DNA from: Bacteroidota bacterium
GTDB taxonomy: Bacteria > Bacteroidota > Bacteroidia > AKYH767-A > 2013-40CM-41-45
Reading direction: 5' to 3'
NCBI GenBank assembly: GCA_043787975.1
Contig: JAYVUK010000016.1
Location: forward strand, 351 to 64,350
Length of the DNA: 64,000 nucleotides
Shown here piece after piece: positions 20,701 to 62,549 of the stretch. The first letter of the stretch is position 1. Every line of letters begins with the position of its first letter. The position numbers and the translations under genes are program-made. A model generated the notes under the pieces. It saw only the letters and a list, made by a program, of their open reading frames with translations, was not told the DNA's origin and did no database searches.

Positions 20701-21681
20701 ATGAGTCGTGTATTAATAACCGGTGCGGCCGGATTTCTAGGATCACACCTGAGTGACCGCTTTATTAAAGAAGGATTCCATGTCATCGGCATGGATAATC
20801 TCATTACGGGCTCTGTAAAAAACATCGAACATCTTTATAAGTTGAAGGAGTTTGAATTTTATCACCACGATGTTTCAAAGTTTGTTCATGTGCCGGGCGA
20901 GCTCGATTACATTCTTCATTTTGCATCCCCTGCAAGCCCGATTGATTATTTAAAAATTCCAATCCAGACATTGAAGGTAGGTTCGCTTGGAACTCACAAC
21001 CTGCTTGGCTTAGCCAAGTCAAAGAAGGCCAGAATACTTGTTGCCTCTACCTCTGAAGTATATGGCGATCCGCTCGTGCATCCGCAGAACGAAGATTACT
21101 GGGGCAATGTGAATCCCGTAGGTCCGCGTGGTGTGTATGACGAAGCGAAACGTTTCCAGGAAGCGATCACCATGGCGTATCATACGTATCATCATCTTGA
21201 AACACGCATCGCACGTATCTTCAATACATACGGTCCACGCATGAGGTTGAATGATGGTCGGGTGCTTCCGGCATTCATCGGTCAGGCCTTGCGCGGAGAA
21301 GATTTAACTGTATTTGGTGATGGAAGCCAGACCCGTTCATTTTGCTATGTGGATGATTTGGTGGAAGGAATTTATCGTTTGCTGATGAGCGACTATCCGC
21401 ATCCTGTTAACATCGGAAATCCGGATGAGATAACAATCAAAGATTTTGCTGAAGAAATAATTCGCCTGACCGGAACGCAACAAAAAGTAATCTACAAATC
21501 GTTACCTACGGATGATCCGAAACAACGGCAACCTGATATTACCCGTGCAAAAGCTATTCTTGACTGGCAACCAAAAATAAACCGTGCTGAAGGTTTAAAA
21601 ATCACCTATCAATATTTCAAAAATCTTCCGGCGGACGAATTGTATAATACGGCTCACCGGTCATTCAAAGAAAAAGTATAA
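20701..21681 (+). CDS. UDP-glucuronate decarboxylase (UDP-xylose synthase), NAD-dependent SDR
   Basis: [34 protein letters not shown]...[19 protein letters not shown]. Hallmark UXS motifs. Confidence 0.85.
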
Positions 21682-21686
21682 CAAAT

Positions 21687-21741
21687 GTTTACGGTTTACA
21701 AGTTTACGGTTTACGTAAACCGTAAACCGTAAACCGTAAAC
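21687..21741. repeat. Intergenic palindromic repeat: GTTTAC(G/A) x4 followed by GTAAAC(C/G) x4, with a perfect 26-bp palindrome at its centre
   Basis: GTTTACGGTTTACAAGTTTACGGTTTAC|GTAAACCGTAAACCGTAAACGGTAAAC. Centre GTTTACGGTTTACGTAAACCGTAAAC is self-complementary. Confidence 0.75.
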
Positions 21742-21755
21742 GGTAAACAAAGATA

Positions 21756-22343
21756 ATGTCAGAACAAAACTCAACATACTTCGCCCATCCGACCGCTGTG
21801 ATTGATGATGGTTGTATCCTTGGAAAAGGAACGAAGATCTGGCACTTCTCTCACCTCATGACCGGTTGCGTGATCGGTGAACATTGTAACCTTGGACAAA
21901 ACGTAGTGGTGTCTTCGGGAGTCGTGTTAGGAAATAATGTGAAAGTTCAGAACAATGTTTCTATTTACACCGGAGTTACCTGTGATGATGATGTATTTCT
22001 CGGACCTTCTGTGGTGTTCACGAATGTGATTAATCCTAGAAGTGCTGTCAGCCGGAAAAATCAGTACGCCAAAACACACGTCGGAAAAGGTGCTTCAGTT
22101 GGCGCCAATGCAACCATTGTGTGTGGACATAACATTGGTGAGTTTGCATTCATCGGTGCAGGAGCAGTGGTTACAAAAGACATTCCTGCTTATGCACTTG
22201 TCATCGGAAACCCTGCCCGTCACGCAGGATGGATGAGTGAATTCGGACATCCTTTGAAATTTGACTCAACCGGAATTGCTGTTTGCATAGAAAGTAAACA
22301 GGAATATAAACTTGAAGGAAATAAAGTCAAAAGAACAAAATAG
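21756..22343 (+). CDS. Hexapeptide-repeat N-acetyltransferase, WbpD/WlbB-like (UDP-2-acetamido-3-amino-2,3-dideoxy-glucuronate N-acetyltransferase family)
   Basis: Left-handed beta-helix repeats. HPTAVIDDG...KIWHFSHL...[14 protein letters not shown]...[49 protein letters not shown] is characteristic of WbpD-type enzymes. Confidence 0.7.
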
Positions 22344-22349
22344 TATTTT

Positions 22350-22406
22350 CGGTTTCCGGTTTACTGTTAACGTAAACTGTAAACTGTAAACACGAAACTG
22401 TAAACA
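22350..22406. repeat. Intergenic repeat: GTTTAC hairpin followed by GTAAACT direct repeats (five GTAAAC/GAAAC copies)
   Basis: CGGTTTACTGTTAACGTAAACTGTAAACTGTAAACACGAAACTGTAAAC. Same hexamer family as 21687-21741 and 26997-27065. Confidence 0.7.
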
Positions 22407-22410
22407 GAAA

Positions 22411-23451
22411 ATGTTAGACGAAAAATCAAAAATAAAATTTGCAATCGTTGGAAGCGGACACATTGGAAAGCGCCATGCAGAAATGATCCGGAGAAATCCC
22501 GAATCTGAATTGGTGGCCATGTCTGATATTAAAACGAAATCCGAACTCGGGTTGAGTGATCTTGAAGTCCCTTTTCTCACTTCCATGGACGAGCTGTTGA
22601 AATCGAACATTGATTTTGATGTCGTCAGTATTTGCACTCCGAATGGTTTGCATGCCGAACAATGTCTCAAAGCACTTGATAACAAAAAACACGTTGTCAT
22701 TGAAAAACCAATGGCACTCACCGTTGCCGATTGTGAAAAAATTATCTTCAAAGCATTACAGGTTTCACGACAGGTTTTTTGCGTGATGCAGAACCGATAT
22801 TCCCCTCCGTCAATCTGGATGAAGGATGTTGTGGATAGAAACCTGTTGGGAAAAATCTTTCTCGTTCAGTTGAATTGTTACTGGAACAGGGATGAGCGCT
22901 ATTATACCGGAAAAAACTGGAAAGGAAATGCTGACTTAGACGGAGGAACGTTGTTCACGCAATTCTCTCACTTCATTGACATCATGTATTGGCTCTTTGG
23001 CGATATCAATGGCATACAAGGTAAGTTTGCTGACTTCAGCCATCAACAAACAACAGCATTCGAAGATTCCGGGCTCGTCACCTTTAATTTTGTGAATGGA
23101 GGAATGGGAAGTCTTAATTATTCAACTTCTGTGTGGGATAAAAATCTTGAAAGTAGTATCACCGTCATTGGAGAAAACGGCAGTATAAAAATTGGCGGAC
23201 AGTACATGAACGAAGTTGAACATTGTCACATTAAAAACTATACGATGCCTGAACTTGCTCCCGGCAATCCTGCAAATGATTATGGTGTGTACAAAGGCTC
23301 TGCGGCGAATCATCATTACATTTTTGAAAATGTCATTGACACCCTGAAAGGCAGAACCATTGCAACAACGAATGCTCTTGAAGGATTGAAAGTGGTTGAT
23401 ATCATCGAGCGGATTTACGCGCTGCGTAAATTAAAAAAACTTCAGAAGTAA
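22411..23451 (+). CDS. Gfo/Idh/MocA-family oxidoreductase, WbpB-like (UDP-GlcNAcA 3-dehydrogenase family)
   Basis: N-terminal Rossmann KFAIVGSGHIGKRHAEMI and overall Gfo/Idh/MocA architecture. It is next to the WbpD-like gene. Confidence 0.7.
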   Translation: MLDEKSKIKFAIVGSGHIGKRHAEMIRRNPESELVAMSDIKTKSELGLSDLEVPFLTSMDELLKSNIDFDVVSICTPNGLHAEQCLKALDNKKHVVIEKPMALTVADCEKIIFKALQVSRQVFCVMQNRYSPPSIWMKDVVDRNLLGKIFLVQLNCYWNRDERYYTGKNWKGNADLDGGTLFTQFSHFIDIMYWLFGDINGIQGKFADFSHQQTTAFEDSGLVTFNFVNGGMGSLNYSTSVWDKNLESSITVIGENGSIKIGGQYMNEVEHCHIKNYTMPELAPGNPANDYGVYKGSAANHHYIFENVIDTLKGRTIATTNALEGLKVVDIIERIYALRKLKKLQK

Positions 23452-23524
23452 ATTAGCTGATTTGCAGATTAGCTAATTAGCTAATTATCACATCGACCCA
23501 TTATCAAATTATCAAATCAAATTT
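23452..23524. repeat. Intergenic element with self-complementary ATTAGCTAATTAGCTAAT and direct TTATCAAA repeats
   Basis: AATTAGCTGATTTGCAGATTAGCTAATTAGCTAATTATCA...ATTATCAAATTATCAAATCAAATTT immediately upstream of the dehydrogenase gene. Confidence 0.5.
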
Positions 23525-24814
23525 ATGTACCAGGATTTAAAAGAAAAGAAAAGAAAATTAGCCGTGCTCGGTTTAGGATATGTCGGTTTACCGATTGCTC
23601 TTGAGTTTGCAAAAAAAATCAGCGTCATCGGTTTTGACATCAGCGAGGAGCGGATCGGGAAAATGAAAAATGGAATTGATCCAAGCGGAGAACTTGATTC
23701 AGATGATTTCAAAAATTGCGACATTGAATTCACAGCCGACCAGGCAAAATTAAAAGATGCGTCTTTTTTTATTGTCACAGTTCCGACGCCGATTGACGAA
23801 CACAACCTGCCGGATCTTCGTCCTCTCTTGAGTGCTACCAAATACATTGGGAAAGCGCTGAAGAAAGGCGACTACGTGGTGTATGAATCCACTGTTTATC
23901 CCGGTTGTACAGAAGAAGATTGCCTTCCGATTCTCGAAGAACTTTCAGGACTGAAATGCAAACAGGATTTTAAACTTGGATTTTCACCGGAACGAATCAA
24001 TCCCGGTGACAAGGAACACACCATTTCAAAAATTCTTAAGGTAGTTTCAGGATGCGATGATGAAGCGCTTGACAACATTGCAAAAACGTATGAGATCATT
24101 GTGAATGCCGGAGTATTCAAAGCTGCTTCCATTAAAGTTGCAGAAGCAGCAAAGATCATTGAGAATACACAGCGCGATGTGAACATTGCTTTGATGAATG
24201 AGCTTTCTATCATCTTCAATAAAATGGGCATCAATACGTATGATGTACTGAAGGCTGCAGGCACCAAATGGAATTTCATTAATTTTTTCCCGGGTCTTGT
24301 GGGCGGTCATTGCATCGGCGTAGATCCTTATTATCTTACTTACAAAGCACAGGAAGTCGGGTACCACGCGCAGGTCATCAACAGCGGACGATATGTGAAT
24401 GACAGCATGGGATTTTATGTCGCCAAACAAACGGTGAAAAAAATTATTGCAACAGGTAAAGATGTTTCGAAATCAAAAGTGCTGGTGATGGGTGCAACAT
24501 TCAAAGAAAATGTGGAAGACATTCGCAATTCAAAAGTTGCCGATGTCGTGAAAGAATTGATTTCATACGGTGTACAAGTAGATGTGACCGATCCGAAAGC
24601 AGATTCAAAACACATGAAACATGAATATGGTTTTGACCTCGTGGAAAAAATCGGAACTGATTACGATGCCGTCATTGTCGCGGTGAATCATACCGAATAT
24701 ATCAACCTGGATGAAAAATATTTTCAATCCATCACCGGGAAAGATGCGATCATCGTTGACCTGAAAGGAATTTACAAAGACAGAATAGAAAACCTTACTT
24801 ATTGGAGTTTGTAA
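23525..24814 (+). CDS. UDP-N-acetyl-D-glucosamine/mannosamine 6-dehydrogenase (nucleotide-sugar dehydrogenase, WbpA/TviB/WecC family)
   Basis: KLAVLGLGYVGLPIALEFAKK, catalytic region GGHCIGVDPYYL, three-domain UDP-glucose/GDP-mannose dehydrogenase layout. Confidence 0.85.
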   Translation: MYQDLKEKKRKLAVLGLGYVGLPIALEFAKKISVIGFDISEERIGKMKNGIDPSGELDSDDFKNCDIEFTADQAKLKDASFFIVTVPTPIDEHNLPDLRPLLSATKYIGKALKKGDYVVYESTVYPGCTEEDCLPILEELSGLKCKQDFKLGFSPERINPGDKEHTISKILKVVSGCDDEALDNIAKTYEIIVNAGVFKAASIKVAEAAKIIENTQRDVNIALMNELSIIFNKMGINTYDVLKAAGTKWNFINFFPGLVGGHCIGVDPYYLTYKAQEVGYHAQVINSGRYVNDSMGFYVAKQTVKKIIATGKDVSKSKVLVMGATFKENVEDIRNSKVADVVKELISYGVQVDVTDPKADSKHMKHEYGFDLVEKIGTDYDAVIVAVNHTEYINLDEKYFQSITGKDAIIVDLKGIYKDRIENLTYWSL

Positions 24815-24816
24815 GC

Positions 24817-24847
24817 TACGAATACGAATCAATACGAATTTACGAAT
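24817..24847. repeat. Intergenic TACGAAT x4 repeat array
   Basis: CTACGAATACGAATCAATACGAATTTACGAATAGCG. Near-identical to the array at 20057-20094. Confidence 0.7.
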
Positions 24848-24855
24848 AGCGTTTC

Positions 24856-25887
24856 ATGAAAAATATTTTAGTTACGGGTGGTACGGGGTACATTGGTTCG
24901 CATACGGTTGTCGAGTTGCTGAATTCAGGTTATCATGTTTTAATCATTGACAACCTGAGTAATTCAAGAATCGAAGTGGTGGAAAGCATCTATAAAATCA
25001 CCGGCAAGCGCCTTTCTTTTTTTGAAATTGATTTGTGTGACAGCGTTGCTGTAAAGAATTTTTTTGATGAAAACAGCGTTGACGCAACCATCCACTTTGC
25101 AGCGTTCAAAGCAGTTGGCGAATCCGTAGAACATCCGTTAAAATACTACCGCAACAATCTTCTTTCATTGATCAACCTGTTGCAAAATTATTCCGAAAAA
25201 AAACTTGACAATTTTGTTTTTTCTTCATCCTGTTCAGTGTACGGCCAGGCTGCAAAACTTCCCGTTGATGAAAGCACACCATTTCAAAAAGCAGAATCTC
25301 CTTACGGGCATACAAAACAAATTAGTGAGGAAATACTTGCCGGTACTGTTCGCGCAAACAATTTCAACACGATCGCATTGCGATACTTCAACCCGGGAGG
25401 TGCTCATGAAAGCGCATTGATCGGTGAGTACCCGCTTCATGCTCCGAATAACCTCGTTCCTGTCATTACACAAACAGCAATTGGCTTACGCAACTCTACG
25501 ACTGTTTTCGGAAACGATTATTCAACTCCTGACGGAACCTGTATCCGCGATTACATTCATGTCGTGGATATTGCCAAAGCCCACGTAGTGGCAATTGAAC
25601 GGTTGATGGACAAAAAAAATAAAAACCAATTCGAGGTGTTTAATCTCGGAACGGGAAAAGGGAATTCTGTGCTGGAAGCAATTCACGCATTTGAAAAAGT
25701 AGCCGGGATGAAATTGAATTACACCATCGGCAAACGAAGACCGGGTGATGTGGAAAAAGTATGGGCTGATACAACGCTTGCAAACAACGAGTTCGGATGG
25801 AAAGCCAAACTTTCATTGGAAGACATTATGCACTCAGCCTGGATGTGGGAAAAGAAAATGAATGAAAAATTGAAAATTGAAAATTGA
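24856..25887 (+). CDS. galE: UDP-glucose 4-epimerase
   Basis: ILVTGGTGYIGSH, YxxxK (PYGHTKQISEE), full-length GalE-like SDR. Confidence 0.85.
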   Translation: MKNILVTGGTGYIGSHTVVELLNSGYHVLIIDNLSNSRIEVVESIYKITGKRLSFFEIDLCDSVAVKNFFDENSVDATIHFAAFKAVGESVEHPLKYYRNNLLSLINLLQNYSEKKLDNFVFSSSCSVYGQAAKLPVDESTPFQKAESPYGHTKQISEEILAGTVRANNFNTIALRYFNPGGAHESALIGEYPLHAPNNLVPVITQTAIGLRNSTTVFGNDYSTPDGTCIRDYIHVVDIAKAHVVAIERLMDKKNKNQFEVFNLGTGKGNSVLEAIHAFEKVAGMKLNYTIGKRRPGDVEKVWADTTLANNEFGWKAKLSLEDIMHSAWMWEKKMNEKLKIEN

Positions 25888-25899
25888 AAATTGAAAATT
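25864..25899. repeat. Heptanucleotide tandem repeat (TGAAAAT/GAAAATT) x5 spanning the galE stop codon
   Basis: GAAAAATTGAAAATTGAAAATTGAAAATTGAAAATT. It encodes the galE C-terminus KLKIEN and contains the TGA stop. Confidence 0.8.
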
Positions 25900-25912
25900 A
25901 TTTTTTCACGCA

Positions 25913-26992
25913 ATGATTTTTAAAAAACATATATTATTAACCGGCGGTGCAGGTTTCATCGGGTCACATGTAGTACGGTTGTTTGTCAACAAGTATCTTC
26001 ACTATAAAATTGTGAACCTTGACAACCTCACATACGCTGGCAATCTTGAAAACCTGAAAGACATTGAGCACAAGGAAAACTACGAGTTTATAAAAGGTGA
26101 CGTCGTCGACAGTACCTTTATTCAACATCTTTTCTCCGAAAAAAAATTTGATGCTGTCATCCATCTTGCAGCCGAATCGCATGTTGATCGGAGCATTGCC
26201 AACCCAATGGACTTTATCATGACAAATGTTGTCGGAACGGTCAATCTTTTAAACGCAGCGAAGAATAATTGGCAACATCCAAATCCTGAATCTGAAAGTT
26301 CAAATCTTTTTTATCATATCAGTACCGATGAAGTATACGGTTCACTTGAAATACATTCAGAAAAAAAATTTACAGAAGACACTCCCTACGATCCTCACAG
26401 CCCGTACTCGGCTTCGAAAGCAAGCTCCGATCATTTTGTCCGTGCATATTATGACACCTACAAATTCCCTGTTGTAATTTCCAATTGCTCCAACAACTAC
26501 GGATCACATCATTTTCCCGAAAAATTAATTCCGCTTGCCATTCATAATATTAAAAACAACAAACCCATTCCTGTTTATGGACAAGGTGAAAACGTTCGTG
26601 ATTGGTTGTTTGTGGAAGACCATGCAAGAGCGATTGATGTGATATTCCACCAGGCAAAAGCCGGAGAAACATACAACATCGGCGGAAACAACGAATGGAA
26701 GAACATTGACCTAATTCATTTACTCTGTGAAATCATGGATCGCAAACTGAATCGCTCAACAGGTTCTTCAGCAAAACTGATTACATTCGTGAAAGACAGG
26801 GCAGGACATGACCTGCGTTATGCCATTGACTCTTCAAAACTTCAGCGGGAACTTGGATGGAAACCTTCCCTGAAATTGGAAGAAGGACTTGAAAAAACTG
26901 TTGACTGGTATTTATCCAACGAAGAATGGCTAAACCATGTCACTTCAGGTAATTATAAAAAGTATTATGAGCAACAATATTCACACAGATAA
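25913..26992 (+). CDS. rfbB: dTDP-glucose 4,6-dehydratase
   Basis: ILLTGGAGFIGSH, HLAAESHVDRSI, YSASKASSDHFVRAY. Canonical RfbB motifs. Confidence 0.9.
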   Translation: MIFKKHILLTGGAGFIGSHVVRLFVNKYLHYKIVNLDNLTYAGNLENLKDIEHKENYEFIKGDVVDSTFIQHLFSEKKFDAVIHLAAESHVDRSIANPMDFIMTNVVGTVNLLNAAKNNWQHPNPESESSNLFYHISTDEVYGSLEIHSEKKFTEDTPYDPHSPYSASKASSDHFVRAYYDTYKFPVVISNCSNNYGSHHFPEKLIPLAIHNIKNNKPIPVYGQGENVRDWLFVEDHARAIDVIFHQAKAGETYNIGGNNEWKNIDLIHLLCEIMDRKLNRSTGSSAKLITFVKDRAGHDLRYAIDSSKLQRELGWKPSLKLEEGLEKTVDWYLSNEEWLNHVTSGNYKKYYEQQYSHR

Positions 26993-26996
26993 GGTA

Positions 26997-27065
26997 TACG
27001 GTTTACAGTTTACAGTTTACCATCTTTGACAACACTTGTAAACCGTAAACAATAAACCGTAAACT
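26997..27065. repeat. Intergenic inverted-repeat element: GTTTACA x3 ... ~18-nt loop ... GTAAAC x3
   Basis: ACGGTTTACAGTTTACAGTTTACCATCTTTGACAACACTTGTAAACCGTAAACAATAAACCGTAAAC. Confidence 0.7.
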
Positions 27066-27068
27066 GAT

Positions 27069-28064
27069 TTGATGTACGAAAAATCTTTTCATAGCGAATC
27101 ATTGAATGACAAAACTTTTCTTGTCACAGGTGGAGCCGGTTTTATCGGATCCAACCTGGTTGAATACTTATTGAAATACGGAGCTGCAAAAGTTCGTGTA
27201 CTCGACAACTTGCTTACTAGCAAAATAGAAAACATAAAACCGTTTTTATCTCATCCGAATTTTGAATTCATAGAAGGAGATATTCGCGATCTTGAATCAT
27301 GCAGACAGGCATGCGATAAAATTCAGTTTGTCTCGCACCAAGCTGCACTTGGATCGGTGCCGCGTTCGGTGAACGACCCGATTACGTCTCATGAAATCAA
27401 TTCGACGGGTTTTTTAAACATGCTGGTTGCTGCACGTTATGAAAAGGTGAAGAGAATCGTGTATGCAAGTTCTTCTTCTGTGTATGGCGATCATCCGTTG
27501 CTGCCGAAGAAGGAAGATGAAACGGGAAATTTACTCTCACCATATGCTGTCACAAAAGAAACAAACGAACTGTATGCCGCCGTGTTTGCTTCAACCTACA
27601 AAATGCAGATTACAGGTTTACGGTATTTCAATATATTCGGTCCGAAGCAAAGCCCGGATGGACCTTATGCTGCGGTAATTCCATTGTTTATTCAATCCGT
27701 CCTGCAAAACAAATCACCCTTCATTGATGGTGATGGAGGCCAAACACGCGATTTTACATTTGTAGAAAATGCTGTTCAGGCCAACATGAAAGCCATGCTT
27801 TGCAAGGATGACAAGGCGATGAATACGGTATACAATGTGGCTGTCGGTGAGCGCATTTCCATCCGTGAACTTTTCAACTTGATTGCCGAACTCGGTAAAG
27901 TGAAATTAAATCCGGTTCATCGTGAAACACGGGCAGGCGATATCCGCGATTCACTTGCTGATATTTCAAAGTCAAAAAAATTGCTTGGATACGAACCGAC
28001 AACTTTTATCAAAGAAGGTTTGCAGATTACACTCGATTGGTTCAGGCAAAACATGCCATCTTAA
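27069..28064 (+). CDS. NAD-dependent nucleotide-sugar 4-epimerase, WbpP/TviC-like (UDP-GlcNAc / UDP-GlcNAcA C4 epimerase family)
   Basis: FLVTGGAGFIGSNL, YASSSSVYGD, YAVTKETNELY. Extended SDR of the CapD/WbpP type. Confidence 0.75.
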   Translation: MMYEKSFHSESLNDKTFLVTGGAGFIGSNLVEYLLKYGAAKVRVLDNLLTSKIENIKPFLSHPNFEFIEGDIRDLESCRQACDKIQFVSHQAALGSVPRSVNDPITSHEINSTGFLNMLVAARYEKVKRIVYASSSSVYGDHPLLPKKEDETGNLLSPYAVTKETNELYAAVFASTYKMQITGLRYFNIFGPKQSPDGPYAAVIPLFIQSVLQNKSPFIDGDGGQTRDFTFVENAVQANMKAMLCKDDKAMNTVYNVAVGERISIRELFNLIAELGKVKLNPVHRETRAGDIRDSLADISKSKKLLGYEPTTFIKEGLQITLDWFRQNMPS

Positions 28065-28073
28065 TTTTCACGA

Positions 28074-28829
28074 ATGAGTTTTTTAAAAAACCTTTTTTCC
28101 GGGAAATCGAAAGAACCACCATTCCCTTCAATCACAGATTATTCCGGTGTAGTTACCGATATTCATTCTCACCTGATTCCAAACATTGATGACGGAGTAA
28201 AGTCGGATGAAGAGTGCGCTGAAATGCTTCGGGCCTTTGTAAGTCTTGGCTATAAGAAGGTAATCACAACGCCACACATCATGCATGATCATTACCGAAA
28301 CACGCCCGAAATAATTCTTGAAGGACTGGAAAAAATAAAAGCTGTTGCTGCGAAAGAAAATATCCCCATAACGATTGATGCTGCTGCGGAGTATTATATT
28401 GATGAAGGCTTTATGCAAAAATTATCGTCCGGAAAAATTCTTACAATCAACGGAAAATATTTGCTGGTGGAAATTTCATACATGAATCCTCCCGACAATT
28501 TACCCCAGGCTTTTTTTGAAATCGGTCTTGCAGGTTACACACCTTTACTTGCTCATCCTGAGCGCTACCCTTTTTGGTATCCGAAGTTTGATGAATACCG
28601 TAGATTAAAAGACCAGGGAATATTATTCCAGGTGAACATTGGTTCCATTGCCGGATATTACGGTCCGGGAGCCAAGAAAATTGCCGAAAAATTGATCGAT
28701 GAAAATTTAGTTGACTTCATCGGAAGTGATCTCCACGGTGATCGACACCTCCAGGCAATGAAGATTGCGCTCAACGATAAATATTTGTGGAAATTAGTCG
28801 GAAGAGGACTAAAAAACTCTACCCTCTGA
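28074..28829 (+). CDS. PHP-family protein-tyrosine phosphatase, CpsB/YwqE type (capsule biosynthesis)
   Basis: DIHSHLIPNIDDG metal-binding motif at the N-terminus and C-terminal HPERY, DLHG motifs. Confidence 0.8.
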   Translation: MSFLKNLFSGKSKEPPFPSITDYSGVVTDIHSHLIPNIDDGVKSDEECAEMLRAFVSLGYKKVITTPHIMHDHYRNTPEIILEGLEKIKAVAAKENIPITIDAAAEYYIDEGFMQKLSSGKILTINGKYLLVEISYMNPPDNLPQAFFEIGLAGYTPLLAHPERYPFWYPKFDEYRRLKDQGILFQVNIGSIAGYYGPGAKKIAEKLIDENLVDFIGSDLHGDRHLQAMKIALNDKYLWKLVGRGLKNSTL

Positions 28830-28834
28830 TTTTA

Positions 28835-29308
28835 TTATTTGCCTTTCGCAGAATCTTTTTTCTCATCCATCGTGCATCCTTTCTTCATGTCATGATTGCA
28901 CTCTTTTCCGCCTTCTTCCATTTCATCACAACATTTTCCATGTGACTCCTTCATTTCATCGCACTGTTTTCCTGAACAGCACTCTTCCCCGCCTGTCCGG
29001 CAAGCAGGCATTTCATGACAACCTGAGTGCATCCCGCAATCGCCTTTCATACCATTCATGTGAACATGTTTCTCAATCATCATTTCAGGCATACAATTTT
29101 CCGAAGGAGTACAGATTCCTGTGCGGCACGCCATCCGGCATGCTCCTCTTCCAAGCTGGCAAAGCAAGCTAAGGCCCGCAACGATGAGAACGCACCAGGA
29201 AATAAATTTGAATAATTTTCCGAGGCTTTCAGCTTTTGTTTTCGCAAGGAGATACATGCCTGCTACCAAGGCAAGCAATGTAAAAGCAATAGAGAGATAA
29301 AGGTTCAT
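28835..29308 (-). CDS. Small membrane protein (2 predicted TM helices) with a ~100-aa Cys/His/Met/Glu-rich tail; putative metal-binding
   Basis: MNLYLSIAFTLLALVAGMYLL...WCVLIVAGLSLLC then CRMACRTGICTPSENCMPEMMIEKHVHMNGMKGDCGMHSGCHEMPACRTGGEECCSGKQCDEMKESHGKCCDEMEEGGKECNHDMKKGCTMDEK. Last gene of the minus-strand GT2 operon. I do not recognise a family. Confidence 0.6.
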   Translation of the reverse strand: MNLYLSIAFTLLALVAGMYLLAKTKAESLGKLFKFISWCVLIVAGLSLLCQLGRGACRMACRTGICTPSENCMPEMMIEKHVHMNGMKGDCGMHSGCHEMPACRTGGEECCSGKQCDEMKESHGKCCDEMEEGGKECNHDMKKGCTMDEKKDSAKGK

Positions 29309-29445
29309 GGTTTATCGTTTTTGTTTGTCTGACAAAGATAGAGTGTTATATTACAAGTGAAGCGTCAGCATGAATAAGATCACAACACAGTTAATAACAA
29401 CAAAAGAAAGTTAAATGGATTCACTAAAGTGGATTCCGCTCTCAT

Positions 29446-30606
29446 TTAACCTGGAAATCTACTTCCCTGTACTTTAATTACTCTTCCCTTCCATTGGTAC
29501 GAACCAACAAGTGAAGTCATCCCAATCACAGAAATATAAATCAAATAAATTAATTGAGCGAATAAAAACAGCCAACCAAAATTTTTCTTTCTGAAGAATG
29601 ATCTCATGCCATTCAATAACAAATATTCAGGAATTATCTTTACAAAGAAAATAACCAGGAAAAATGGAATGACGAAGGGATGAAACATGCAAATAAAAAA
29701 CAGGATTAATAATCCTCCATGCAGCGCATATGCGATCAAAGCAATTGTCAATGTAAACAGGCTCATCCTCATTGGAATCTTGGAAGCCCAGCGTTTGCGT
29801 TGATTGAACAGAGTACGCACGGAACTCATGGCACCTGTATAAACAATAGCTTCGGATGATTTAAGGAAATGAATCTTCGAAGAATCCTTCCTTGAAATCT
29901 TACCAAGGAGTTCCGTGTCGTCACCTGAAGCGTTTTGTTCCCGGTCAGAAAATCCATTCACCTCCAAAAATATTTTTTTTGAGTACGCCAGGTTGGCTCC
30001 GTTACACATCATCGGTTGATGATTTGAAATGCTTCCCGCTCCTATTCCAATCAAACCCATGAACTCCAGGCTTTGCAACTTCTCAAAACTGTTTTTCTCT
30101 TCCGAAAAACAAACGGGGCCGGTAATCATCCATGGATGTTCCGTTTCATAGTAGCTCACCATGGTTCCCAGCCAGCCGGGCAACATCCTGCAATCGGCAT
30201 CGGTGGTTACAATTAATTCTCCGGATGACTTTTGAATCGCATGCGCAATCGCCTGTTTCTTATAAAGAGTTCCCTGTCCTTTATTATTGTTGAGAAGGAC
30301 TATTTTATAATTCAGATGTTGTTCAATAATCCGATTCACAATGGCAACAGTATCATCCGTTGAATGATCATCCACAACAATTATTTCAATCAACTTAACC
30401 GGATAATTTTGTTTTAAAATATCGTGCAGGCAATTTGAAATAGTTGACGCTTCATTTCGTGCAGGAACGATGATGGATACCGTTGTTTTAAAATCAGCTT
30501 TTGCTGAATGAAACCGGTTTATTTTTTTCCATCCCATAAAACACCAAAAAATAAATCCTGCATAAAGAACACCTATAAACAAAAGTGAAATTAAAAAAAG
30601 CATCAT
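29446..30606 (-). CDS. Family-2 glycosyltransferase, membrane-embedded processive type
   Basis: N-terminal TM, then IIVPARNEA...VVDDHSTD (DxD region), TDADC, and QRKRW (the QxxRW motif of processive GT2 synthases). Extra TM helices at the C-terminus. Confidence 0.8.
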   Translation of the reverse strand: MMLFLISLLFIGVLYAGFIFWCFMGWKKINRFHSAKADFKTTVSIIVPARNEASTISNCLHDILKQNYPVKLIEIIVVDDHSTDDTVAIVNRIIEQHLNYKIVLLNNNKGQGTLYKKQAIAHAIQKSSGELIVTTDADCRMLPGWLGTMVSYYETEHPWMITGPVCFSEEKNSFEKLQSLEFMGLIGIGAGSISNHQPMMCNGANLAYSKKIFLEVNGFSDREQNASGDDTELLGKISRKDSSKIHFLKSSEAIVYTGAMSSVRTLFNQRKRWASKIPMRMSLFTLTIALIAYALHGGLLILFFICMFHPFVIPFFLVIFFVKIIPEYLLLNGMRSFFRKKNFGWLFLFAQLIYLIYISVIGMTSLVGSYQWKGRVIKVQGSRFPG

Positions 30607-31607
30607 CTCGTTTTTATCCTTTCAAGGTTGAACATAAAAATAAATACCGTCCCAATCAATGCAGGAATCACCAGGTTGATAAGCCAAAGAGAGAGTGTTG
30701 AATTTAAAATTCCAAGGGTATGATCGGTCACCTGGCCGAGAAAAAAAGTCGCAACTGCACCCCTCACTCCTAGTTCGGTAAGCGCAATGGTTGGAATCAA
30801 CGACATCAAAAAATAAATCATACTGATGAGTATCATTGCAACAGGATATGAAACCTCAATCCTGAATACGTGAAGCAAAAAATAAAATTGGGCCGTGAAC
30901 ATAAAATAGCGGATGGCTGCAAGCACCACTACATTCAACAATTCCCTGTACGAATAATAACTAAACACTTCGGTGTATTTCAGCCATGATTTCGCCCACC
31001 TGAATTTACGAAGGACGATTTCCAAAAACGAAACGTTCAGAAAAGCAAGGACACATCCGCTAATGAATACAGCGACGAGAACAATTGTGCCGACAAAAAA
31101 GTACGTATTGATGTGGACAAAAAACCGCAAATAAAACAGGAGGCCGACAGAACCGGCAACCATCGTAACAAGTAATTGACTAAGATTCTCAATCACCGTA
31201 ATCAGGGTGGCTTTGATACGATCAGCAGTATCCAGGTGAAATACTCTTCCGGCATATTCACCGATCCTGTTAGGGGTAAAAAAACTGATGGTTAAACCCG
31301 AGAAAACCGCTTCCAAAGATTTCAGGAAACTGATGTGCTGGATTTTGCTGATCATCATTTTCCATTTCATCGCTTCAACCGACCAGTTGATGAACATCAA
31401 TACAAAGATGACAATAAGCAGGAGGAATTTTGAGCGATCCCGAAAAACTGTTCTGTACTCATCAACCAGTAACAAAATATTTTCCTTTTCAAAAACCTGC
31501 TTATAGATAAACCAGATTGCTAACAATGCAATGGTAATTTTGATTACCATCGGCAGTAATTGGTTTGATTTATTTTTTTTCCTTTGCTCCATTGCAATCA
31601 ACAACAA
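30603..31607 (-). CDS. Polytopic membrane protein, flippase-like / lysylphosphatidylglycerol-synthase-TM-region (UPF0104) family
   Basis: About 8 TM helices. The stop overlaps the GT2 start (ATGA). This family is commonly paired with GT2 genes. Confidence 0.65.
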
Positions 31608-33184: not shown

Positions 33185-34246
33185 TTACAAACTAAATCGT
33201 GCTCCGAAAGAATGCGTTCCGCTAAACGGATCGGTCGCGCGATAAGAATAATCTAAACCAAAAGTTTTTCCGGTTTTCCCGAGCGGAACCTGGAACGTAA
33301 AACCTGCCGAAGGACCTGTATAAACAGTGGTTCTCAGGTTATCATCGAAAATATTATTTTCATACGTAAATCCTCCGCGAAGCATGAAGTAATTTTTAAA
33401 CCCATATTCAAGTCCAAGCGAGTATTGATCATTTGAAAATGAATTGGAATTAAAAGTTCCGGCAACAGAGATACGATGATCCTTTGCAGGGAGAATGTCG
33501 TAGGTAACTCCGATATTAACCAACGACGGCATTTCAAAACCGGACGAACGTTGCTCAAGTGTTAATTCATAACCTGCGGGAGTTGTCACACGCGTTGATA
33601 ATCCGTCACCTCCAAATTTCATTGGTGTTCCGACATTTTTTAAAGCAATACCGAATTTCAAATTGTCTTTGTCTTCGTTAGAACCGGTTACATATTGAAT
33701 TCCGGCATCCACGGCAAAACCTCCTGCACTTACATTGGAAATACTTTCATCGATCACTTTCACATTGATTCCTCCATAGATGCTGTGAGAAAATGTTTTC
33801 GCATAGGACAGGTTAATGTTAATCAGGCTTGGAGAAAATGTTCCCAGCCCGCCATCAGGGCTTTCCGTGGTTGTAACAGCAATATCACCAAAATCCATCG
33901 CCATTACTGCAAAGCCAAATGCACCACCTGACTCACCCAGTTTTTGGGTCATTCCGAATGCATTCACATTGATCTCCGATCCTTTGAGCCACTCTGTGTG
34001 TGACACTACAATATCGGTCTGTTTTGTAAACGCAATACCGGCTACATTTCCAAAAATAGCTTCCACTCCATGAACGGATCCGGAGTTTGCACTTCCCCAA
34101 CCGGATGACCTTGCCCAGGGATTAATGAGAAGTTCTGTCGCTCCGGCTTGTCCGGCACGATCAGGATTTCCCGCTTTTATTTTCGCACACGGAAAAACAA
34201 TTGCTGCGATGGATAAAGTAACAATGTATTTATAGAGCTGTTTCAT
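33185..34246 (-). CDS. Outer-membrane beta-barrel protein, PorV/LptO-like (FadL-fold T9SS shuttle); assignment tentative
   Basis: Signal peptide. AGQAGATELLINPWARSSGWGSANSG resembles the conserved N-terminal PorV motif (LLIxPDARSxGMG). Ends in aromatic F-x-x-R-F-S-L. Located directly downstream of a large protein with a divergent T9SS CTD. Confidence 0.45.
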   Translation of the reverse strand: MKQLYKYIVTLSIAAIVFPCAKIKAGNPDRAGQAGATELLINPWARSSGWGSANSGSVHGVEAIFGNVAGIAFTKQTDIVVSHTEWLKGSEINVNAFGMTQKLGESGGAFGFAVMAMDFGDIAVTTTESPDGGLGTFSPSLININLSYAKTFSHSIYGGINVKVIDESISNVSAGGFAVDAGIQYVTGSNEDKDNLKFGIALKNVGTPMKFGGDGLSTRVTTPAGYELTLEQRSSGFEMPSLVNIGVTYDILPAKDHRISVAGTFNSNSFSNDQYSLGLEYGFKNYFMLRGGFTYENNIFDDNLRTTVYTGPSAGFTFQVPLGKTGKTFGLDYSYRATDPFSGTHSFGARFSL

Positions 34247-34290: not shown

Positions 34291-37200
34291 TTAGAATGTA
34301 TCTAGATCGATTGGTCGTAAAACACCAAACCACTTGATCGTCTTTTCACCAATTCCGGGAGCATTAATGTGAATGATATACACACCGCTGGCTATCGGAA
34401 CCCCTGCCGTATTTTTAAGATTCCATTCAAGCGCTGTTTCAAGATTCAACTCAGGATAAATTGCTCCTGCCGTATTATCTGTACTTACGTCACGCTTCAA
34501 CGTCCTCACAAGTATTCCACTTGGTGTATAGATCGTCACAACACACTTTGCCGGCAGATTAATAATCTTAATGCGGTTATCCAACTGATTCTGTTCATAA
34601 GAAGAGAATGCGTAATAAGGATTCGGTACCACGTTAACCGTATCCAACGCTTTCTTCGCTGTTTCAAGATCACCGGTTAAGGCAACGAGATCATCGGTGT
34701 TGAACTGGTATTTAGGGAAGTTATTATTCGTAGGAGGTACGTCTGTCTGGTATGCTTCATAAGGTTTTGCCATGCGAATACGAATGGTCGCCGTAGTGGA
34801 TAATAATGTTTCTCCCCTGTTCAGCATCGGGTAGCCAACCCACATGCATGATGCCCATGGTCTCTTATAATTTAATAAGCCGCTCGAACCACCATAATTT
34901 GAAGTCGTTAGCACTCTCTTAAGTCTTGAATAGAGGAACTGGCAACCGTCATACATTGGAAATGTATCATTATGAGCAAACACATATACAATGTGTTTAC
35001 CTCCAAAAACAACATTGCCTGCTTCATCAAAATAAGTTGAAGTTGGATTCCATTTCATGTCAGCACCATTGTCCGAAGCTAAATGACTATCCTCACCAAA
35101 AGCGATGTTCAAACGTTCACCAGTTTCCAGGTTGACGGCATAACCAGGAAAGTAACTAAAACCAGTACCTGTATCAGCAACTAAATCGTTTCCACTTAGC
35201 TTTAAAGATGTACTTCTTCTTGGTGTGCCTTTCAAAGCATTTCCAACTGTAGCGGCTGAATTATCTCCTTGTTCAATCACCATACACTTACTCCAATAGC
35301 GTGTATCAGGCGTAAACACAATATTTACACTCGCCTGATCTTTAAACTGGTTTAGCGCATGAGCTTGTCCGTTTGAATTCATATCTGATGTCGGAGGATT
35401 AGCGTGCTTAAACTGCGTGCTGTCCCAAGCCGCAAACTTATAAGCAGTCCATGTTCCACCAATCAGTTTTCCCCAAACATTCTTGCCATCCAGTTTAGCA
35501 ATCTGGCTTCCGGTTACTGCATAATATTTATAATCAGCCGGGTCACTTCCACTTGCGATCCAGTTGAATTCACCGTCTCCATCAGCCACTCCACCTAACC
35601 AACGTTGAGCTGAATTTTCAAAATTAATGGTCGCCTCAATAAATTGTGGAATAGCATTTTTACCGACAATCGCTCCCGGGTAGAGAAGTGGAGTATCGAC
35701 AGGTGCAGTTGTTGGAGTATTAGTCAACTGACTCATGTTTATATAAAAACCATAATCAACAGGAAATCCGTCTGCGTTATTAAATTTGACTAACTGATCA
35801 TAAGGACTTCCAATCGCAGCTACCCCATTTAATGTGTCACCTGTTGACAGATTTTTTAAATGCCATTTTGAACCGTAGTTAATAGAGTCTGACCACAATT
35901 GAAAATTACCTCCTTTTACATTTACAGGATCAAATACACGAATGTCCACTGGACCTCTCGCTCTTTGGTAAACAGGGTGCAGTGAACGTCCGGGATGTGT
36001 AGTGTTGAAAAGTAAATCATCAACGGTTGCCGGAGTAAAGTCCAGCGCTAACCTGTCTGATTCTACCACATGACCATTTCCTTGTCCTTCAAGTCTTGTA
36101 ATTTCAGGTCCGTCTCCAAAAGAAGAATTCAAAACCAATCCATTAAATTCCGGTGTAACAATGTGTGGAATGGCAGTATATGTTTTAATTCTTCTTCTTC
36201 CTGATATGTAAGGTTTGCCATCTCCGTCAGGTGTAAGACCATAATTAAATGCATCAATCTCGATGTGATTGTATCCATAGGCAATTACGGTATAGTAATA
36301 TGTCTTATGATTAATTAGCTTATCGTCACCCGTAGCAAATTTGTCTTTCGTGAGTCGGAATACATGGCGCAAACCTACATCCGCTCCGGCAACTTCCTCA
36401 ACTCCGTAATAAGCTGTTGTAACCTGGTCTTTGAAATAATTCACAAGTTGACCTACTCCATTTGATTTATCACATTGGAAAACCAAACTGGCTTTGTCAG
36501 GATTACGAATGTCGTTAATGGTTACAGAACCATCTTTCAATTGGAATACCTGGTATCCTTCAAAATGATAGAATGGATCTGGATCACCTTGGTTCAGGTT
36601 CGGGTCAATTTCAGTATACGTTTCATCCGTACCACCTACCGGGTGATTATTGGTTCCTTCAGGATTTGAAATGGAAAACAAAAGTTCCTGGCTCATTTCG
36701 CGAATGCTGAGATCAGGAGCATCAGGACCATTTGTAATAGCAAAATTATGATCAAATAATTTCTGAGCTTTATCATCAGCCAAAAGAAGCAATGCGATGG
36801 ATCCGGAAGAACCACATGCTGTTCCGGGTCCGCCTGAACCGGCGCGAGCCCATACTGCTCCTGTTGTAATATAATTTACTGCACCAGGCTGTAAGGTAAA
36901 CGGACCGGCGGTTTGTAAAAATCGTCTGTCGTCAGGGTTATTACCGGCAGTTACTTCATCCCAAACCGGTTGGGGAACATGATTCGTACCCCATCCTGTC
37001 GGATCTGAACAACCAGGGAACATAAAATTGGCTGGAATGTTTGTATGTCCAAGATTCGCACCGTGTCCGTCTCCTCCATAAGTAATTACATTTCCATCTT
37101 TCCAGATTCCTCTTAAATAGTTGTAGTAATCGCTGGCACTATTCGGATTACCTATCACTGAAAAATCATTGTTGTAATAAATAAACTTCGACATGATGAT

Positions 37201-38379
37201 AAGTTCGGGCTTCACGGTATCAGGTATCGTATCAATTACTCCGGAAGAATCCGGAAGATATGTACAATCTATGCAACCATCCCTGTCATTATCGACTCCG
37301 TCACCCGGATCCGCTTTTGGTCCCTGGAAAAAGTCATATCCGACTGCAGGCGGATTAAAACCGTAACCCGTGATTCCATCATCGTATGAATCTCCATTGT
37401 AGCAATAGCCAAAACCTCGTTTTACATCACAACCTACATAATCATCCAAATAATTTCCAAGATCCGGATCTACCCAAGCACCAAAGTAGGTGGTATCCAC
37501 TTCGAGTATTGAGCGGTTAATAATTTTATATTTATAAAACGTCATGTTGTTGATTTCATCGTTGGTGGCAAATGCAAATGCCTGCGCCTGGACCTCGAGA
37601 CCGATCGCCTGCCCATTTGTTTCTCCATGAACGTTTCCGACATCGTTAAACACCCACCAGATACTTTGGTCACCTAAAAGGTATTCACCTGTAGCGCTAT
37701 TAGGATCATTATTAGGGAGCTGGAGGTTGTAACCCGGGTAATCACCATTTTCATAGTTGTACTCACCATCAGCATCAGCATCATGAAACGGTGCTAAGAA
37801 ATGAGATTGTCCCAACGATCCATCACCGTTACCCGGCCATTCCTTAATATCAAGAGGAGGATTTGGGTTTGGTGTGTGGTTCGGAAGAAAACCACTTGCA
37901 TATTCTTCTACTTCTTCATGCGTCACTTCCCAATGCCTGTCATATTTAAGACATACGCTGGCTGTCGTCGTTGCAGCGCCACCGGTTGTATCAATAGGGC
38001 CCGGCCAGAAATCAATTCCGCTCTGGCGGTATGTTTGCGCGGCTACTTTTAAATTGTTTCCATTGTCTTTTCCACCAATCCAGAGAGCTCCTGCAAAAAG
38101 CGAATATTTTTTTGAATCCTTTGGAACTTCATACCTAGCGCTACCAACTAAATCCCACCACATATCACCATTGATCCAGATCGGGCAACGGATGTTGTTA
38201 ATATCAAGATCCTTGTGAGATGAAGAATTGGTACAAGTCGCTGCAACCACAGGCAGGGTAGGATCACGATGTATCCCTCCCCCGGACCCGGAACCTGAGC
38301 CTCCACCGATATTTTCTTTTGCAGAAAGAATACCGGCATAACAAAATGAAACAATGATTAAAAGAGCAAATTTTTTCAT
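34291..38379 (-). CDS. Large (1362 aa) secreted protein with N-terminal Gly/Ser linker and a divergent T9SS-type C-terminal domain; possible PorU-like (C25 peptidase family) by gene context
   Basis: Signal peptide plus GGGSGSGSGGG. C-terminus VVTIYTPSGILVRTL...ASGVYIIHINAPGIGEKTIKWFGVLR is CTD-like but carries an extra PIDLDTF. A candidate His/Cys pair (DGHGANLGH ... PGCSDP) is present. Size and position upstream of the PorV-like gene fit porU. Confidence 0.4.
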   Translation of the reverse strand: MKKFALLIIVSFCYAGILSAKENIGGGSGSGSGGGIHRDPTLPVVAATCTNSSSHKDLDINNIRCPIWINGDMWWDLVGSARYEVPKDSKKYSLFAGALWIGGKDNGNNLKVAAQTYRQSGIDFWPGPIDTTGGAATTTASVCLKYDRHWEVTHEEVEEYASGFLPNHTPNPNPPLDIKEWPGNGDGSLGQSHFLAPFHDADADGEYNYENGDYPGYNLQLPNNDPNSATGEYLLGDQSIWWVFNDVGNVHGETNGQAIGLEVQAQAFAFATNDEINNMTFYKYKIINRSILEVDTTYFGAWVDPDLGNYLDDYVGCDVKRGFGYCYNGDSYDDGITGYGFNPPAVGYDFFQGPKADPGDGVDNDRDGCIDCTYLPDSSGVIDTIPDTVKPELIIMSKFIYYNNDFSVIGNPNSASDYYNYLRGIWKDGNVITYGGDGHGANLGHTNIPANFMFPGCSDPTGWGTNHVPQPVWDEVTAGNNPDDRRFLQTAGPFTLQPGAVNYITTGAVWARAGSGGPGTACGSSGSIALLLLADDKAQKLFDHNFAITNGPDAPDLSIREMSQELLFSISNPEGTNNHPVGGTDETYTEIDPNLNQGDPDPFYHFEGYQVFQLKDGSVTINDIRNPDKASLVFQCDKSNGVGQLVNYFKDQVTTAYYGVEEVAGADVGLRHVFRLTKDKFATGDDKLINHKTYYYTVIAYGYNHIEIDAFNYGLTPDGDGKPYISGRRRIKTYTAIPHIVTPEFNGLVLNSSFGDGPEITRLEGQGNGHVVESDRLALDFTPATVDDLLFNTTHPGRSLHPVYQRARGPVDIRVFDPVNVKGGNFQLWSDSINYGSKWHLKNLSTGDTLNGVAAIGSPYDQLVKFNNADGFPVDYGFYINMSQLTNTPTTAPVDTPLLYPGAIVGKNAIPQFIEATINFENSAQRWLGGVADGDGEFNWIASGSDPADYKYYAVTGSQIAKLDGKNVWGKLIGGTWTAYKFAAWDSTQFKHANPPTSDMNSNGQAHALNQFKDQASVNIVFTPDTRYWSKCMVIEQGDNSAATVGNALKGTPRRSTSLKLSGNDLVADTGTGFSYFPGYAVNLETGERLNIAFGEDSHLASDNGADMKWNPTSTYFDEAGNVVFGGKHIVYVFAHNDTFPMYDGCQFLYSRLKRVLTTSNYGGSSGLLNYKRPWASCMWVGYPMLNRGETLLSTTATIRIRMAKPYEAYQTDVPPTNNNFPKYQFNTDDLVALTGDLETAKKALDTVNVVPNPYYAFSSYEQNQLDNRIKIINLPAKCVVTIYTPSGILVRTLKRDVSTDNTAGAIYPELNLETALEWNLKNTAGVPIASGVYIIHINAPGIGEKTIKWFGVLRPIDLDTF

Positions 38380-62104: not shown

Positions 62105-62549
62105 GTTGGTTGAATTTAAGTTATTGTTTCTATTGTTTGTTTTTATTTTATTTGGCAGGGTATATAAAAGAAAAATGCATCGCCGCACAAAGTGCCACAA
62201 CACATTTTAAAGAAGACAAAGCCGTTAAATAATCAGTGTAAAATTTCACGCAAGTTATACTGTTTAAGTTAAGCTACTTTTTATTTTTATCGGGAATTCC
62301 CTTTTGTTGATACTAAAGAGAATGTAAATATGAATGTAATTTTTAATAAATCCAAATTTTTTTTTCAACAATTCACCCGCATCTGTTAAACACTTTCACA
62401 AAACCTTCATTGAATTGCGGGATAATGATAGAAAGAAACATTTGTCTTCGCAAATTATTTCTATACTTTTTCTTAACATTTTGGTGAACGAGATGATTTC
62501 TATGGTGAACAGAACTTGATTGCATGTTTACCGTTGTTGTTTATGTATA

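Follow-up and report, generated by a model that had tools for sequence, protein, structure and literature searches.

The region examined here spans positions 28835-31607 of a stretch of 64,000 nt from a Bacteroidota bacterium (contig JAYVUK010000016.1, positions 351-64,350, forward strand), referred to below as the window. It contains three neighbouring genes on the minus strand, which encode a flippase-like membrane protein (gene 1), an integral-membrane glycosyltransferase of family GT2 (gene 2) and a small membrane protein with a tail rich in Cys, Met and His (gene 3). With a probability of about 0.5 we read this region as two separate things, namely a glycolipid gene pair and an independent small protein that would bind metal. 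Genes 1 and 2 are an ordinary though uncharacterised pair of glycolipid type; the family of gene 3 is genuinely unannotated. A first-pass annotation of the same DNA had joined all three genes into one synthase-type operon. Its observations are largely correct, beginning with the three open reading frames (ORFs) of 334, 386 and 157 amino acids (aa), which are found as described. Its operon-level interpretation is unsupported.

Genomic context separates gene 3 from the GT2. A word-index search with gene 3 yielded 30 homologues; in the following, L numbers denote the related loci that were compared and P numbers denote members of the small-protein family. In the closest homologues the whole neighbourhood is syntenic (outer-membrane protein, GreA, HIT, RuvC, flippase, GT2, small gene, CpsB, epimerases), and the close relatives L001, L011, L019 and L020 have the GT2 and the small gene in the same order as the window. 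Because the entire neighbourhood is syntenic, the adjacency of GT2 and gene 3 within this close clade carries little weight. In L004 and L005 an OppC-like permease is inserted between the two genes, and in L012 they are separated by that permease, a helix-turn-helix (HTH) regulator and a LamG protein of the type IX secretion system (T9SS). Around 25 other loci of the family have unrelated neighbours and no GT2. Among the family members the small gene follows a MacB/FtsX permease beside rplT-infC-thrS (L007, L008, L013), has a PepSY_like gene immediately upstream (P0020), or is found near Tle1-like, thiol-cytolysin, GlmS, ADH, PEBP, LEA_2 or CMAS genes or a cluster of extracytoplasmic function (ECF) sigma factor, TonB_C and NlpC/P60 genes. 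The recurrent neighbours give no functional lead, since each is confined to one sub-clade (MacB/FtsX at 3 loci, Tle1-like at 4, PepSY_like at 1, LEA_2 at 2).

The distant GT2 loci L014-L017, in turn, are without the small gene. Some of them retain the flippase-GT2 pair, and L016 has the GT2 without the flippase. In L014 the GT2 directly abuts cpsB at a distance of 15 bp, with no small gene in between. The gene at the corresponding side in the window encodes a CpsB/CapC-type PHP phosphatase (28074-28829, plus strand; PF19567, 1.4e-48) and is the last gene of a sugar-nucleotide cluster that spans 20701-28829. It faces gene 3 with the two stop codons 5 bp apart, so that the convergence on this cluster is as first described, and it is not part of the unit. 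Of the three genes only the flippase-GT2 pair recurs; gene 3 is not co-conserved with the GT2 outside the close syntenic relatives, the pattern that the first-pass annotation itself had named as speaking against a partnership of the two. The simplest history suggested by these comparisons would be that gene 3 is an independent neighbour which one sub-clade acquired at the point where GT2 and cpsB converge.

Genes 1 and 2 are tightly linked. Reading of the sequence shows that the stop codon of gene 1 and the start codon of gene 2 share an ATGA (30603-30606, minus strand). L001 and the distant L014 show this 4-bp overlap as well, and the adjacency of flippase and GT2 is kept at 36-45% identity (L014, L017). 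Translational coupling had been proposed for all three genes. It holds for genes 1 and 2 and fails for gene 3, which starts 137 bp past the GT2 stop.

Gene 1 (30603-31607, minus strand; 334 aa) encodes a polytopic, flippase-like membrane protein of the PplT/LPG_synthase_TM (UPF0104) type. It matches the Pfam family PF03706 with 54.6 bits (cut-off 33.4, E=1.6e-14) over residues 20-292, corresponding to profile positions 1-275 of 302. Known as the lipid-flippase domain of MprF, PF03706 often stands alone or is fused to or paired with glycosyltransferases (bioRxiv 10.1101/2022.03.11.483950). A literature search that combined PF03706 with glycosyltransferase gave no result. Gene 1 may start at either of two codons, the TTG at 31607, giving the maximal ORF of 334 aa, or the ATG at 31550, giving 315 aa. 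The public gene call takes the 315-aa start, yet the alignment with relatives reaches residue 2. At 31565-31607 the maximal ORF of gene 1 overlaps that of the divergent ruvC (TTG 31565) on the opposite strand. Alignments of ruvC with its relatives suggest a true start near residue 28, which would leave a short divergent promoter region.

Gene 2 (29446-30606, minus strand; 386 aa) encodes an integral-membrane GT2 that matches PF00535 with 95.6 bits (cut-off 23.3, 4e-27) and lies just over the cut-off of PF13506 (GT21; 25.4 bits, cut-off 21.7). A word-index search returned >7467 homologues at E<=1e-10, and in an alignment of 44 homologues D80, D84, D136, D138, Q269, R272 and W273 are invariant. 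The AlphaFold2 (AF2) model has a pLDDT of 90.6 and consists of one N-terminal transmembrane helix, a GT-A domain, an interface helix (residues 263-275) and three C-terminal transmembrane helices. The interface helix carries the QRKRW motif (residues 269-273; 29788-29802, minus strand), as seen in translation, alignment and model. Motif and flanking transmembrane helices thus agree with the first description of this protein. A Foldseek search of the PDB with the model gave PcManGT (6yv7) as top match, which is also the best PDB match by sequence; hyaluronan and cellulose synthases came next (TM-score ~0.6, E ~1e-12 to 1e-13). As modelled, the fold is cellulose-synthase-like, and neither the fold nor QxxRW establishes processivity. 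The QxxRW signature is not diagnostic in this respect, since it also occurs in non-processive lipid GT2s such as glucosylceramide (GlcCer) synthase and HpnI.

In NCBIfam the GT2 scores far below every equivalog cut-off. Full-length matches are limited to the lipid glycosyltransferases CruG (residues 34-376) and HpnI (28-380); both align end to end, under their equivalog cut-offs (CruG 66.4 vs 600, HpnI 42.4 vs 310). The synthase equivalogs also stay under their cut-offs, with 78.6 vs 422.3 for PgaC_IcaA, 51.6 vs 550 for NodC and 16.7 vs 699 for CelA. PgaC_IcaA is the second-best NCBIfam match of the GT2 (4.6e-22), and this match is partial. Among the neighbours of the GT2 there is no PgaD, BcsB, PilZ, pgaA/pgaB or outer-membrane export partner.

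PF03706 is the MprF flippase domain, and the gpgSDF and hexSDF operons combine a glycosyltransferase with a PF03706 protein. For these reasons we consider genes 1 and 2 to be a putative coupled module for the synthesis and flipping of a glycolipid or lipid-linked glycan. The two characterised operons consist of a glycosyltransferase, a deacetylase and a PF03706 protein and lead to aminoglycolipids (PMC12713373, PMC10128005). By analogy, the GT2 would move a sugar from a nucleotide sugar onto a membrane lipid or lipid-linked acceptor at the cytoplasmic face, and the flippase-like product of gene 1 would then carry the glycolipid to the outer leaflet. Both the lipid acceptor and the flipping are what we infer from this analogy. 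Several points weigh against it. Sequence and fold assign neither lipid acceptor nor sugar to the GT2, and its fold and QxxRW are common to the processive hyaluronan synthase (HAS) and BcsA (TM-score ~0.6). The Foldseek matches in the PDB held no solved lipid GT2 of the HpnI, CruG or GlcCer synthase type. Moreover, the GT2 is without an adjoining flippase gene in L004/L005 as well as in L016, and there is no deacetylase gene in the window or the related loci, unlike in gpgSDF and hexSDF. The pair is a candidate module for making and flipping a glycolipid, in a phylum where little of the envelope glycolipid inventory has been mapped.

A serious rival, though in our view the less likely one, is that the GT2 is a true processive synthase that makes an oligo- or polysaccharide of the poly-N-acetylglucosamine (PNAG), chitin or hyaluronan kind, with the PF03706 protein as export or accessory component and the small gene unrelated. 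The invariant D,D,D,QxxRW among the GT2 homologues, the Foldseek matches to hyaluronan and cellulose synthases and the high rank of PgaC_IcaA are consistent with such an enzyme, as are the adjoining sugar-nucleotide cluster and CpsB-type phosphatase, whose adjacency is retained in the distant L014. However, every equivalog cut-off (PgaC, NodC, CelA) is missed widely, the top structural match is non-processive, accessory or export genes are absent nearby, and only four transmembrane helices are predicted. Channel-forming synthases such as BcsA and HAS have more of them, although an oligomer or the product of gene 1 could still contribute to a channel beyond the 1 + 3 helices of the model. In addition, the PF03706 partners of characterised glycosyltransferases work on lipids (PMC12713373, PMC10128005). 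Of the proposed synthase-type operon, the D,D,D,QxxRW residues and the cellulose-synthase-like fold stand, while the status of an exopolysaccharide synthase is not established, given the missed cut-offs and the four transmembrane helices.

In several lineages an isolated gene for an OppC-like permease of the ABC type (BPD_transp_1, in some cases also OppC_N) lies directly after the GT2 (L004 6741-7955; L012 2972-4189; L016 6219-7385; L017 6182-7288). In L004 and L012 it overlaps the stop codon of the GT2; further ABC components are not visible nearby. The permease, absent after the GT2 of the window, may be a functional partner that recurs with this GT2 family.

Judged from sequence comparison, gene 3 (28835-29308, minus strand; 157 aa) is a genuine conserved gene. 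It represents an unannotated Bacteroidia family which combines a conserved membrane hairpin with a disordered, Cys/Met/His-rich tail and which is absent from Pfam and NCBIfam. A profile search returned 510 representative clusters at E<=1e-3 and 272 at E<=1e-10, with members of ~90-250 aa. The window protein fits the family profile with 1.8e-34 and is the sole such ORF in the window. All named sources of the family are uncultured Bacteroidia or Bacteroidota bins, with no cultured host among those identified, and a scan of a genome collection found 4 metagenome-assembled genomes, all from uncultured Bacteroidota; for the metagenome scan a 19-sequence subset of the alignment was used. Informative labels of family members read 'hypothetical protein'; the few exceptions (RcnA, heme A synthase, EcfT) are automatic and evidently spurious. 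The gene 3 product has no match in Pfam or NCBIfam at E<=0.1 except a chance-level one to DUF2768, and none in the PDB, searched with the single sequence and with a profile. In particular, no profile of the metallothionein, HMA copper chaperone, zf-HC2 anti-sigma or zinc-ribbon families in Pfam and NCBIfam is matched. A literature search for membrane-anchored bacterial metallothioneins gave only papers on eukaryotic CYSTM and PLAC8 proteins and general copper reviews.

The protein has two parts. Residues 1-53 (29150-29308, minus strand) form a membrane hairpin of two helices joined by a Lys-rich loop (AKTKAESLGKLFK), as seen in the translation and the AF2 model. In the model the helices comprise residues 3-27 and 31-62, and pLDDT is 68-82 over residues 1-70. 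The window protein carries the family motif of the hairpin, for which the consensus is LLAxxAGMxLLAKTKKExLGxFFKxxSW; invariant residues are G17, L20, L21, K23, E27, L29, G30 and C50. The mean pairwise identity within the family is 0.63 for the hairpin vs 0.43 for the tail. This degree of conservation suggests that the hairpin does more than anchor the protein and might serve in oligomerisation or in docking to a membrane partner.

The tail (residues 54-157 and stop codon; 28835-29149, minus strand) is predicted to be disordered, with pLDDT <50, is rich in Cys, Met, His, Glu, Gly and Lys, and ends in KKDSAKGK. Its 104 aa include 14 Cys, 12 Met, 6 His and 13 Glu (13% Cys, 12% Met, 6% His). The share of these three residues is 31% in the tail vs 4.6% in the other proteins of the window; with Glu included it is 43%. 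The two helices described earlier for this protein and the strings CCSGKQCDEM, HGKCCDEMEE and CGMHSGCHEMPAC quoted from it are confirmed. Pooled tails of the family contain 9.8% Cys, 11.3% Met, 5.4% His, 13.8% Gly, 10.4% Glu and 11.8% Lys. Composition is thus conserved throughout the family, while sequence and length vary; a frequent end is KKDS/TxKK. In some members (L031, L036, L034) the tails are rich in Met, His and Arg and have almost no Cys. With regard to spacing, CC and MM doublets dominate, and CxC and CxxC occur at family means of 0.1 and 0.2 per tail, neither of them being present in the window tail. A zinc-ribbon or zf-HC2 anti-sigma pattern, the second of which had been named as a finding that would speak against a special role, can be excluded because CxC and CxxC are rare and doublets dominate.

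The orientation of the tail can be approached through fusions in other members of the family. P0205 has a C-terminal PepSY_like domain with a match over the cut-off (6e-12), and at least 8 members have a C-terminal LTXXQ/Spy/CpxP-like domain of ~90 aa with two LTxxQ motifs. PF07813 is matched by 4 of 8 of these (best 3e-6) and DUF4890 by 2 of 8; a profile of the domain searched against the PDB gave 5ihf at 0.0025, Spy at 0.04 and CpxP at 0.23. PepSY_like and LTXXQ/Spy/CpxP are extracytoplasmic domain types. The window protein itself is without the LTXXQ domain, which is an extra C-terminal part of some members only. Carriers include P0198, P0213, P0225, P0257 and P0273 and ORFs in L022 (127-963), L031 (4983-5612) and L036 (2094-2756). 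In L031 a separate DUF4890-like gene is located immediately downstream of the small gene (5649-6020). The connecting loop contains 3.6 Lys and Arg per 13 residues vs 2.2 per 15 after the second transmembrane helix. Because of the fusions to extracytoplasmic domains and the Lys-rich connecting loop, the most likely topology of the hairpin, predicted indirectly and with moderate confidence, is N-terminus out, loop in and tail periplasmic.

Cys, Met and His together with acidic residues are the ligand set of soft metals, and for this reason the tail is predicted from its composition to bind soft metals (Cu, Zn, Cd), as a membrane-tethered buffer or chaperone. Orientation and metal binding are both properties that we infer. 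Tentatively, and at less than even odds, we propose a widespread family of inner-membrane hairpins with a periplasmic, metallothionein-like tail, a class neither described nor annotated in bacteria as far as the searches show, which would act as a soft-metal sponge or chaperone and whose hairpin would dock into a membrane complex. If the proposed periplasmic metal binding is true, it would represent a new form of membrane-tethered bacterial metal buffering in uncultured environmental Bacteroidia. A number of observations count against this proposal. Most of the LTXXQ matches are below the Pfam cut-off, and the positive-inside signal of the hairpin is weak. In the oxidising periplasm the many Cys residues could form disulfides instead of binding metal, the tails seldom show the CxC and CxxC spacings of metallothioneins, and among the family neighbours examined no gene for metal homeostasis is recurrent.

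With a cytoplasmic tail, the protein would be a membrane-tethered metallothionein whose thiolates are kept reduced. Cytoplasmic thiolate-cluster proteins typically show such a high Cys content with CC doublets. Three Arg follow the second transmembrane helix of the window protein, and the bias of the positive-inside signal is only weak. Against this orientation stand the PepSY_like and LTXXQ/Spy/CpxP fusions, the connecting loop as the most Lys-rich segment, and the Met/His-rich, Cys-poor tails of L031, L036 and L034, which are typical of periplasmic Cu/Ag binders. We regard a cytoplasmic tail as rather improbable.

Similarly low is the likelihood that the tail is not chiefly a metal binder but a redox or disulfide-rich element, or a disordered envelope holdase or stress sensor akin to Spy/CpxP. 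Such a function would agree with the Spy/CpxP-like fusions of several members, with the missing recurrent linkage to metal transporters or regulators, and with one recurrent context that comprises an ECF sigma factor, TonB_C, NlpC/P60 and a membrane protein weakly resembling MauE/DoxX. However, Cys, Met, His and acidic residues are enriched jointly, and this combination is the classic ligand set of soft metals. Furthermore, a tail whose composition is held while its sequence is free, and in which CxxC is rare, fits ligand density over a folded redox site. The preferred reading of the tail is that of a periplasmic soft-metal binder.

The ECF sigma context belongs to one sub-clade, in which the small gene ends a same-strand run of ECF sigma factor, TonB_C, NlpC/P60 and a 379-aa MauE/DoxX-like protein (L041-L043, 1130-5432; L028, 647-2889). 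This run could be an envelope-stress or thiol-oxidation context.

The 137-bp spacer between the GT2 and gene 3 (29309-29445, minus strand) contains TATCTTTG (29333-29340), which resembles the Bacteroidetes -7 box of the TAnnTTTG type and lies 24 nt upstream of the ATG of gene 3. Promoter-like boxes occur upstream of the small gene in every context; similar ones are seen where the surroundings are unrelated, as with TACATTTG in L007 and L013. Gene 3 probably has its own promoter, as far as such boxes allow a prediction; a sigma-70 promoter scan is uninformative for Bacteroidota, and an Rfam scan of the region gave no match beyond one at chance level. A point against an independent gene 3 is that neither a terminator scan nor RNA folding of the spacer (z = -0.48) revealed a convincing terminator after the GT2, so that co-transcription by read-through is possible. 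Upstream of the small gene, L001 (~7960-8000), L004 (~7960-8000) and L012 (~5960-6000) have GTAACTATT...TTTTACCTTCGTA-like blocks in common. These blocks are shared although the preceding genes differ, and they are a promoter or operator candidate.

The model of the first-pass annotation, in which the three genes form one synthase-dependent exopolysaccharide operon with the gene 3 product as metal or redox subunit, is very improbable in the light of these data. In the window as well as in L001, L011, L019 and L020 the genes adjoin on one strand in an unchanged order, no terminator was detected between GT2 and small gene, and the GT2 has QxxRW and a CesA-like fold. Yet the adjacency is restricted to a fully syntenic clade, the junction is split in L004/L005 and L012, some 25 family loci are without a GT2 and the distant GT2 loci without the small gene, and a 137-bp gap with a promoter-like box separates the two. 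The family sizes differ as well, with >7467 homologues of the GT2 vs ~100 (word-index search) or 510 clusters (profile search) of the small protein. The proposal that an exopolysaccharide synthase has a metal or redox subunit here is thus not upheld, and a misleading annotation is avoided. PgaD and IcaD are small proteins with two transmembrane helices that are encoded after their GT2. That gene 3 encodes a PgaD/IcaD-like accessory subunit of a PgaC/IcaA-like GT2 is extremely improbable: the window GT2 does partially match PgaC_IcaA, but the gene 3 product has no Pfam or NCBIfam match at E<=0.1 bar the chance-level one, pgaA and pgaB are absent, and the analogy was dropped for lack of co-conservation between the small gene and the GT2.

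Some further genes of the window were also inspected. Two minus-strand genes at 33185-34246 (353 aa, with the appearance of an outer-membrane beta-barrel) and 34291-38379 (1362 aa) have no Pfam match and are syntenic beside greA in all relatives, the distant L014 included. An ORF of 3313 aa (52262-62203, minus strand) contains Gly_rich_2, G8, Ig_7 (CHU_C-associated) and GEVED domains, and adjoining it at 47755-51765 is a PKD-repeat protein of 1336 aa with a T9SS sorting tail. The 3313-aa and 1336-aa proteins are probably surface proteins secreted by the T9SS.

By analogy, the window pair resembles several known modules and is a member of none of them, be it hexSDF, gpgSDF or HpnI/HpnL. Like hexSDF from C. 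difficile and gpgSDF from P. aeruginosa, it combines a glycosyltransferase with a stand-alone UPF0104/PF03706 protein (PMC10128005, PMC12713373). The logic proposed for both operons is that a lipid is glycosylated inside the cell and then flipped, the flippase role of GpgF and HexF being putative. The window pair differs from them in the lack of a deacetylase and in its polytopic CesA-like GT2, whereas GpgS is a soluble GT4 enzyme and HexS is annotated as MGDG-synthase-type. The hopanoid proteins HpnI (GT2) and HpnL (PF03706) resemble the pair too, and HpnI aligns with the whole GT2, if weakly (42 vs 310).

PcManGT from Pyrobaculum (6yv7) is, like the window GT2, a short membrane GT2 in a CesA-like arrangement with few transmembrane helices. 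It reportedly is a 'minimal cellulose-synthase-like' enzyme; the PDB entry says mannosyltransferase only. Identity to the window GT2 is 18% at a TM-score of ~0.6, and PcManGT is archaeal, acts in N-glycan synthesis and has no reported PF03706 partner. BcsA, hyaluronan synthase, PgaC/IcaA and NodC have D,D,D,QxxRW, a GT-A domain bearing interface helices and the fold as a whole in common with the window GT2, which differs from these processive synthases in its four transmembrane helices, the missed equivalog cut-offs and the absence of accessory or export genes nearby.

For gene 3, PgaD and IcaD are comparable in size, in the two N-terminal transmembrane helices and in the position after a GT2. 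They are unlike it in that there is no homology and no co-conservation of gene 3 with the GT2, and they are without a Cys/Met-rich tail. In composition only, the gene 3 product is like the bacterial metallothioneins and periplasmic Met/His-rich metal binders SmtA/BmtA, MymT, PcoE/SilE and ZraP, which are small, rich in Cys, Met and His, largely disordered without metal and conserved in composition more than in sequence. In contrast to metallothioneins, PcoE/SilE and ZraP, with which it has no sequence match, it has a conserved two-helix anchor, and its family uses CC and MM doublets in place of the CxC and CxxC spacings. ZraP belongs to the LTXXQ/Spy/CpxP superfamily, the same superfamily as the domain that is fused to some members of the gene 3 family.

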